Of a stretch of 31,156 nucleotides of DNA, positions 6,857-7,236 are shown piece after piece. The stretch lies in IMG/VR virus record IMGVR_UViG_2778261417_000015, positions 1-31,156 of that record; one strand, written 5' to 3'. Origin of the DNA: a virus. Its lineage: Duplodnaviria; Heunggongvirae; Uroviricota; Caudoviricetes. The notes under the pieces are model-generated. The model had not been told where the DNA came from and searched no databases. It saw only the letters and a list, made by a program, of their open reading frames with translations. Numbering within the stretch: the first letter of the stretch is position 1; each line of letters begins with the position of its first letter. A program made the translations under genes and the position numbers.

Positions 6857-7236
6857 TGCCTTATCCTCTGTAGTTACCCGCTGATGCGGGAGAAACGCTT
6901 TGGTCGGTGTGGTGTTTCGCACCTTGCTGGCCTATGCGAATGTCTATCCAGCCGCTTCCAGGTCGTTCCGAAGAACACACCACACCCCAAAACATTACAT
7001 GTATTGGCCAGCGCCAACTCCCTGCCAGTGTTGCCCGTTCTCACGTCGTTCTCGCTCTCGCGCGGGGATACTCTCTCACCGACCGGATCGCACCCGGTGA
7101 TACAGCACGTTTTCGTGTAGGGGTCTTAACAGGTCATTGACGCTGTAAATCTGCTGAATTGTTAAAGAAGCAGGCGGGGTATCCGCCGCTGGCTAACTTC
7201 GCTCAGCTGTCGAGTTCGTTTCGATGGGTTGATGAT

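Follow-up and report, generated by a model that had tools for sequence, protein, structure and literature searches.

How does an early transcript get past its first terminator in a lambdoid phage that encodes no N protein? The question is raised by the leftward operon of a viral DNA of 31,156 nucleotides (nt; IMG/VR virus record IMGVR_UViG_2778261417_000015, positions 1 to 31,156). This whole stretch, called the window below, comes from a mosaic lambdoid prophage of the Enterobacter/Klebsiella type and represents its early region. We know of two lambdoid routes past early terminators, namely N protein on nut RNA and put RNA alone. According to a 2025 survey of lambdoid phages, those without N "may use put" (PMC12315714). 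In the window, the transcript from the leftward promoter pL carries a boxA and, behind it, a conserved structured RNA of 133 nt. We lean towards the view that boxA (7172-7158) and this RNA form one unit and that this unit serves as the leftward early antitermination signal, which would make it the functional counterpart of lambda nutL or HK022 putL. It is best read as a cis-acting early antitermination RNA that fails the defining tests of both nut and put sites. An earlier note on the same DNA had pointed to the boxA and to a hairpin upstream of it. Its observation stood up, as did the absence of an N-like protein. Its rrn-like reading of the upstream hairpin did not, and the covarying RNA downstream and the homology with phi80 had escaped it.

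The leftward early operon

The layout of the operon is lambda-like, with promoter, signal, first gene, and the terminator tL1 in this order.

7232..7260, minus strand: pL promoter from a promoter scan (-35 TTTACA at 7260-7255, -10 CATCAT at 7237-7232)
7184..7225, minus strand: conserved 5' leader segment AUCGAAACGAACUCGACAGCUGAGCGAAGUUAGCCAGCGGCG with two small predicted hairpins, the left flank of a swappable slot
7158..7172, minus strand: boxA variant UGCUUCUUUAACAAU, at about +54 from the presumed pL start
7011..7143, minus strand: structured RNA module, 133 nt, six helices, defined with RNAalifold and a covariance model
6596..6856, minus strand: first leftward gene, 86 amino acids (aa), PHROG 21696 (function not assigned), in a hypervariable accessory slot
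6580..6597, minus strand: intrinsic terminator tL1, GACCCGC-UCCG-GCGGGUU followed by UUUUAU

By alignment, pL and OL of HK022 are nearly identical to pL and the operators of the window. Because the HK022 putL transcript begins 6 nt past CATCAT (PMC9378689), the pL transcript of the window would start, by analogy, at about A7225. The leader segment that follows (7225-7184) is 80-95% conserved over the loci compared and is common to phi80, HK225, KO-TP1, and the put-bearing phages HK639 and CobraSix.

The product of the first gene is acidic and has no arginine-rich motif (ARM), as the earlier note had claimed. Its pI is 4.13, with 21 Asp and Glu versus 9 Lys and Arg, and 3 of its 86 residues are Arg. 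No Pfam family matched it. Virulent phages of Klebsiella and Vibrio encode homologues, as does KO-TP1 at another site in its genome. Since these homologues are scattered through unrelated virulent phages, the gene is regarded as an accessory gene. Among 111 loci, the first genes after the module belong to more than 50 unrelated families. Of 102 loci, 71 have a strong sense-strand terminator behind the variable first gene (antisense, 10 of 102), at a median distance of 556 nt past the module, and tL1 of the window agrees in position with tL1A of phi80. No promoter-like site was found on either strand in 1-6700, so that gam, recT, exo, and the other leftward genes need readthrough of tL1.

A boxA on the pL transcript

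The earlier note had reported that a minus-strand element shares a 10-mer with a boxA of the rightward operon. Exactly two copies of this 10-mer, CTTTAACAAT, are present in the window, at 7158-7167 (minus strand) and at 9036-9045 (plus strand, just past cro), where simple arithmetic predicts about 0.06 exact copies per 2 x 31 kb by chance. The minus-strand copy ends the 16-mer CTGCTTCTTTAACAAT at 7173-7158. The functional boxA consensus of rrn and suhB is GYTCTTTAANA (PMC5725501), and UGCUUCUUUAACAAU agrees with it at 10 of 11 positions. Fold prediction leaves boxA unpaired, whereas the first 52 nt of the transcript fold as small hairpins. Coincidence, which the earlier note had allowed for, does not account for the shared 10-mer: a boxA-like motif stands 5' of the RNA module in every homologue examined, even where the sequence further upstream is unrelated. 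The commonest version is TGCTTTTTAACAAC, and CGCTCTTTAACAAT, TGCTCTTTAACAAT, and TGCTCATTAACAAC also occur; the version of the window, TGCTTCTTTAACAAT, is rare. The sequence at 7172-7158 is thus a genuine, selected boxA on the pL transcript.

The adjoining hairpin was found where the earlier note had described it.

7173..7187, minus strand: hairpin GGCGG (7187-7183), loop AUACC, CCGCC (7177-7173), directly 5' of boxA on the leftward transcript

The weight that had been laid on this hairpin, as part of an rrn-like order, is not borne out. When 18 distinct upstream contexts were compared with their shuffles, the sequence 5' of boxA showed no better folding (mean z -0.6). The hairpin is therefore not a conserved partner of boxA, and we rejected it as a conserved boxB. 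On the minus strand, the GC hairpin (7173-7187) and the U-rich boxA (7158-7172) together score as intrinsic-terminator-like, and the same holds in phi80 (hairpin, then UGCUUUUUAA). This arrangement might be a pause or attenuation point at about +65, but it is absent from PA2-type copies.

A covarying RNA module behind boxA

The module downstream of boxA is built from the following helices.

7143-7138/7016-7011, minus strand: P1
7132-7128/7026-7022, minus strand: P2
7122-7120/7036-7034, minus strand: P3
7117-7106, minus strand: P4, hairpin CACG-AAAA-CGUG, the "nutL core" of phi80
7099-7077, minus strand: P5, hairpin
7064-7044, minus strand: P6, with an inner CGC-GAGA-GCG hairpin

The RNAalifold consensus contains 29 pairs in these six helices. 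In a MAFFT alignment of 42 sequences, 98.0% of the cells are paired, compared with 28-42% when the partners are slid, and 11 of the 29 pairs show compensatory changes. None of 500 shuffles attained the observed values. A second set of 64 distinct sequences, which takes in copies found without requiring the P5 word, was aligned with the covariance model; in it, 95.4% of the cells pair and compensatory changes occur at 14 of 29 pairs (slid-partner control over both sets, 28-43%), but a model-fitted alignment leans to the structure of the model and the MAFFT result is the more independent one. The module of the window scores 201.9 bits with the covariance model. It is the sole copy there; no second one was found in the window, and none in 933W. 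Folded alone, it has a minimum free energy of -54.2 kcal/mol (z -2.97). The conservation profile also reveals near-invariant single-stranded stretches within the module. Searching 5500-11000 against Rfam 15 with cmscan, up to E=10, gave no match within 6857-7240. No description of the element or of its sequence strings was found in the papers searched.

The copy in the window is slightly atypical. Position 7046 (minus strand) is A, where nearly all homologues have G, which produces a C.A mismatch and costs P6 one pair. In addition, boxA carries a one-base insertion.

The element is widespread. Between positions 6978-7228 of the window and the phi80 pL leader, identity is about 93%, and the phi80 record labels the same boxA, TGCTTTTTA, and the 12-nt "nutL core", CACGTAAACGTG, as a putative nutL. 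HK225 and Klebsiella phage KO-TP1 have the same stretch, as do more than 60 Stx2a-converting phages of the PA2, TL-2011c, and P13374 type (Oslovirus). The copy in Edwardsiella phage Edno5 is diverged. The gene after the module differs in each of the phi80, HK225, KO-TP1, Stx2a-phage, and Edno5 cases. Two scans with conserved words found more than 150 further copies in viral contigs, about 100 of them distinct. Among 5,426 complete E. coli genomes, 221 (about 4%) carry the module, unannotated, including phi80-remnant strains such as DH5alpha (NZ_CP025520.1, 126793-126961) and O104:H4 and O111:H8 isolates. The hosts belong to Escherichia, Klebsiella, Enterobacter, and Edwardsiella. Along the leader, conservation extends from the transcript start to about 7010 and is followed by a variable spacer and then by a patch (6915-6857) seen in about 60% of the loci, while the coding sequence of the first gene is common to only 6-20% of them.

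Conservation of this kind could also come from a protein encoded on one of the strands, either by a 56-aa GTG open reading frame (ORF) or by an antisense ORF of 61-77 aa. The ORF MRTGNTGRELAL... is open in the window, phi80, and PA2, and the antisense ORF family occurs in 51 loci. However, the variable columns are spread evenly over the three codon phases (20, 22, and 21), so that no three-base periodicity is seen in the module. The GTG start falls out of frame in type-B modules, no Shine-Dalgarno (SD)-like sequence is evident 5' of it, and the other two frames are at least as open as the one that ends in FSRISG* at the 3' patch. The compensatory base-pair changes account for the conservation instead, and we consider a coding function highly improbable; the antisense ORF was rejected on grounds of periodicity and covariation. 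The earlier note was right that the interval from boxA to the first gene lacks minus-strand ORFs of 60 aa or more. The small-ORF search that it had called for returned, as the longest, one of 56 aa (GTG, 6874-7044) and one of 44 aa (ATG, 6861-6995) and no arginine-rich ORF. Neither of the two is conserved as an ORF in homologues, and both were rejected as genes. Since there is covariation, no codon periodicity, and no conserved small ORF, the conserved object is a non-coding RNA.

A slot shared with put and nut

Alignments with CobraSix, HK639, and HK022, with 933W, phi80, and PA2, and with the related locus L312 delimit the unit as a cassette.

6998..7183, minus strand: exchangeable cassette of 186 nt, comprising the 3' part of the hairpin, boxA, and the RNA module
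6975..6992, minus strand: GU-rich, boxC-like stretch UUUUGGGGUGUGGUGUGU, the right flank of the slot

In HK639 and CobraSix, a put-like RNA follows the 5' leader segment in place of boxA and module. The HK639 record annotates it as "putL-like antiterminator RNA", and its resemblance to HK022 putL is clear. L312 has the 5' segment of the window as well as a downstream leader, of about 135 nt up to the start codon, that is about 98% identical to that of the window, and a put-like cassette lies between the two. CobraSix likewise has the downstream leader of the window. In 933W, a canonical nutL precedes the sequence from UUUGGGGUGUGGUG onward, which is common to phi80 and PA2. The boxB of this nutL, GGCGCUGACAAAGCGC, recurs in nutR, and an N protein with a classical ARM follows. 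The GU-rich stretch UUUUGGGGUGUGGUGUGU, about 165 nt past boxA, is shared by the 933W N leader, phi80, PA2, and put-bearing contigs, and may resemble boxC. Thus, three different elements alternate at one position, of which two have a known or annotated role as antitermination signals.

After the same 5' segment, we counted about 105 cassettes with boxA and module, 40 put-like ones, two hybrids, and several others led by boxA, a ratio biased towards the module by the inclusion of loci from module-anchored scans. Several of the others start with a hairpin and a boxA-like motif, TGCTCATTAAGAA..., followed by a different conserved sequence of about 130 nt; they may be further classes of boxA-led RNAs. 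The other cassettes include type X (L320, L334, L337, L348, L366-L368, L373, and L379) and those of L323 and L355, of L341, and of L335 and L356.

Homology between the module and put was considered and rejected. No similarity was detected by alignment (HK022, HK639, CobraSix, L312) or with the module covariance model, which had no match at put-bearing loci. A local resemblance between GAACGGGCAAC and GAACGGCAAUG of put is unconvincing, with different letters conserved in each.

The exchange of cassettes also bears on two readings in which the module has a different task. In one, it is a 5' untranslated region (UTR) element for processing, stability, or translation control, like the RNase III-sensitive lambda N leader, and boxA is a separate anti-Rho signal. 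The lambda N leader is structured and processed by RNase III, and the module, too, belongs to a leader that is long and structured and separates the nut region from the first pL gene. A conserved hairpin and SD patch also lies just before the first gene.

6857..6915, minus strand: conserved patch with hairpin CCCGC-AUCA-GCGGG (6890-6877) and SD sequence AGAGGAUAAGG (6869-6859)

This patch recurs in about 60% of loci, where the genes behind it are unrelated. It does not mark the end of any conserved small ORF and looks like a portable translation-initiation region for the accessory-gene slot. In contrast to the lambda N leader, the module is coupled to boxA and not to the ribosome-binding site of a gene. 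It always travels with boxA and not with the SD patch, its distance from the hypervariable downstream gene varies, typically from about 100 to 600 nt, and the gene to be regulated would differ in nearly every phage. Its exchange partners are put and nut cassettes rather than UTR elements. A UTR function is therefore unlikely in our view.

In the other reading, the RNA has nothing to do with termination and is a stable pL-leader fragment that sequesters a host factor or counters host defence. The strong conservation of sequence and structure, including the near-invariant single-stranded stretches, and the wide host spread (Escherichia to Edwardsiella, with Klebsiella and Enterobacter) would suit such a role. 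Yet no terminator or obvious processing signal that would bound the module was found, its linkage to boxA is constant, and it is promoter-proximal and upstream of a terminator, in a slot shared with two proven or annotated antitermination signals. We give this reading slightly less credence than the UTR one.

The search for a protein partner

The earlier note had concluded that a canonical N antiterminator appears to be absent, and wider searches uphold this. The leader contains no arginine-rich ORF, and no N family is represented among the left-operon genes of the window. A tblastn panel over 159 module loci detected a 933W-type N in 2, lambda N in 0, and HK022 Nun in 0. Besides CI, the CII/YdaT-like protein, and Kil, no gene shared by the loci was found within +/-7 kb of the module.

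The most serious competitor of the proposed RNA signal is an ordinary nut site, in which boxA is joined by P4 as boxB and is bound by a phage antiterminator without a classical ARM, encoded by the first gene or elsewhere. The phi80 record annotates accordingly a nutL boxA, a nutL core, and an "N", the arrangement follows the pL-nutL-N-tL1 order of lambda, and P4, a short hairpin, combines an A-rich loop with a covarying stem. An N-like ARM protein is also encoded near Edno5-type modules. The distribution of candidate genes speaks against this competitor. The phi80 "N" family occurs in only 12-13 of the approximately 159 module loci by tblastn, the loop type of P4 does not correlate with its presence, and neither phi80 "N" nor the first-gene product of the window is similar to 933W N. 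The first gene varies among more than 50 unrelated families, with an acidic product in the window and homologues in virulent phages, and no other shared candidate emerged from the +/-7 kb survey. P4 itself is 41 nt from boxA and belongs to a larger conserved fold, and the rightward operon contains no counterpart of it; no nutR is annotated in the phi80 record. We therefore rate an ordinary nut site as rather improbable, although less so than the UTR and non-termination readings.

Three ORFs deserve mention. The Edno5-type copies have an N-like ORF about 700 nt past the module (L150:9067-9384, plus strand; also in L245), with the arginine-rich motif MNSRQRRAMRYRAA and a P22/933W-like C-terminus. 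A gene in reverse orientation and two repeated TTGACTGTGGAAA sites precede it, and in these copies a rightward boxA is followed by a P22-like hairpin, GCGCC-GAUACA-GGCGC. In L165 and three related loci, the first-gene family encodes a 94-aa protein, MADDDYTMGEFWRDMKPELRERRRIARNSAHEG..., with a motif near the ARM of HK022 Nun (RDRRRIARWEK); phages without N may use it as a Nun-like exclusion protein. In the window, the only ARM-like string near pL on the leftward transcript is a 46-aa TTG ORF rich in Lys and Arg, SKRIKRRKKLKRR (6691-6831, minus strand), in another frame within the acidic first gene. It lacks an SD-like sequence and probably results from GA-rich codons.

The rightward boxA

The second copy of the 10-mer belongs to an element that the earlier note had called nutR.

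9032..9079, plus strand: boxA CGCUCUUUAACAAU (9032-9045), an 18-nt spacer, and hairpin GGCUGA-GUAA-UCAGCC (9064-9079)

This boxA is in perfect agreement with GYTCTTTAANA (PMC5725501). The hairpin is unlike P4, and the element scores only 11 bits with the module model, all from boxA. BoxA, spacer, and hairpin make up a conserved unit of their own, which only 5 of 81 module-bearing loci possess, with a loop that differs among them (GUAA, GCAA, UUUA, GUUA). As no strong intrinsic terminator was found between the rightward boxA and Q, this boxA may be a plain anti-Rho boxA.

How the unit would act

In the mechanism that we favour, transcription would start at pL at about 7225, and the first 50 nt or so would fold into small hairpins, leaving boxA single-stranded at about +54. 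The host proteins NusB and NusE (S10) would bind boxA. The three-way-junction RNA would then fold behind the polymerase and, with NusA and NusG, remain on the elongation complex. The polymerase modified in this manner would pass tL1 (6597-6580) and any Rho-dependent sites and enter the recombination and accessory genes, which span about 6 kb. No phage N-like protein would take part, and the RNA would play the role that N has in lambda.

We prefer this mechanism because boxA and the module co-occur in every homologue, the module is a structured RNA with compensatory changes, and the cassette occupies the same slot as known antitermination signals. The lambda-like order of pL, signal, first gene, and tL1, the predicted accessibility of boxA, and the failure to find a cognate protein point in the same direction.

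Several observations weigh against it. The commonest boxA, UGCUUUUUAACAAC, deviates from the functional consensus at position 4, and that of the window has one additional U. Each phage has a single module copy, and a boxA is missing from the rightward operon of most relatives. The module has no detectable similarity to put. In phi80, the 98-aa gene after nutL is named "N" ("early transcription antiterminator protein N"), and genetics of 1988 reportedly may support an N function in this phage, in which case a protein partner would exist in phi80 at least. The N-like ORF of the Edno5-type copies is a further point of this kind. Finally, rrn-type boxA/Nus complexes counter Rho-dependent termination better than intrinsic terminators, and the RNA would therefore need to add an extra activity.

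Comparison with known systems helps to place the unit. Like the lambda-type nut sites of lambda, P22, and 933W/H-19B, it is promoter-proximal on the pL transcript, has boxA at its 5' end and a short hairpin with an A-rich loop (P4), and precedes a first gene and an intrinsic tL1. Unlike them, it is found in phages without an ARM-bearing N as the first pL gene, its P4 is one arm of a 133-nt six-helix fold at 41 nt from boxA, and it is a single copy per phage with no matching hairpin in the rightward operon.

With put of HK022 and HK639, it shares the position just past pL in an N-less phage, the slot, and the nature of a cis-acting structured RNA; pL and cI of the window are also HK022-like. 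The put RNAs are protein-independent antiterminators that bind the zinc-binding domain of the beta' subunit of RNA polymerase and need no Nus factors. They lack boxA, whereas the module is always preceded by it, and this obligatory boxA points to the use of Nus factors by the module. The two RNAs also differ in architecture, as the module is about 133 nt long with a three-way junction and put RNA is about 70 nt with two stem-loops (PMC9378689).

The rrn leader (boxB-boxA-boxC) and host boxA sites such as those of suhB and CRISPR leaders resemble the unit in having a boxA close to GYTCTTTAANA and no dedicated phage protein. As in the rrn leader, a hairpin lies 5' of boxA in the window; the GU-rich stretch downstream may be a counterpart of boxC. 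The factors of rrn antitermination are NusA, NusB, NusE, NusG, SuhB, and S4. In contrast to the rrn leader, the hairpin 5' of boxA is not conserved, a large conserved fold separates boxA from the GU-rich stretch, and the obstacle ahead is a strong intrinsic terminator and not Rho only.

From these comparisons we put forward, with some hesitation, a third class of lambdoid early antitermination signal in which boxA would recruit NusB/NusE, the 133-nt RNA would replace N, and intrinsic terminators would be resisted. With the same reserve, this class would take in phi80, HK225, and the Stx2a phages of the O104:H4 and O103:H25 outbreak strains. The other boxA-led cassettes in the slot suggest that it may be one of several such classes.

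Neighbouring genes

The other genes of the early region referred to above are listed here.

7985-8740, minus strand: CI-like repressor gene, product 58% identical to HK022 cI
8776-9015, plus strand: cro
9113-9655, plus strand: CII/YdaT-like gene
16098-16787: Q-like gene

Between cI and pL, at the position of rex in lambda, lies a gene of 195 aa (7386-7973, minus strand) that has no match in PHROG, Pfam, or PADLOC. It is a candidate for an exclusion gene expressed in lysogens. The defence-system models of PADLOC did not match the neighbouring genes of unknown function.

Implications

Many sequenced lambdoid phages have no N; for a large group among them, the element gives a concrete answer that can be tested. 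The natural exchange of module, put, and nut between the same flanks defines the constructs for such tests. The element heads the early cascade of the Stx2a phages of outbreak strains, which leads towards Q and toxin expression. If the proposal is true, a single RNA would join the recruitment of host Nus factors with a polymerase-modifying fold and would form a bridge between the rrn, nut, and put mechanisms.

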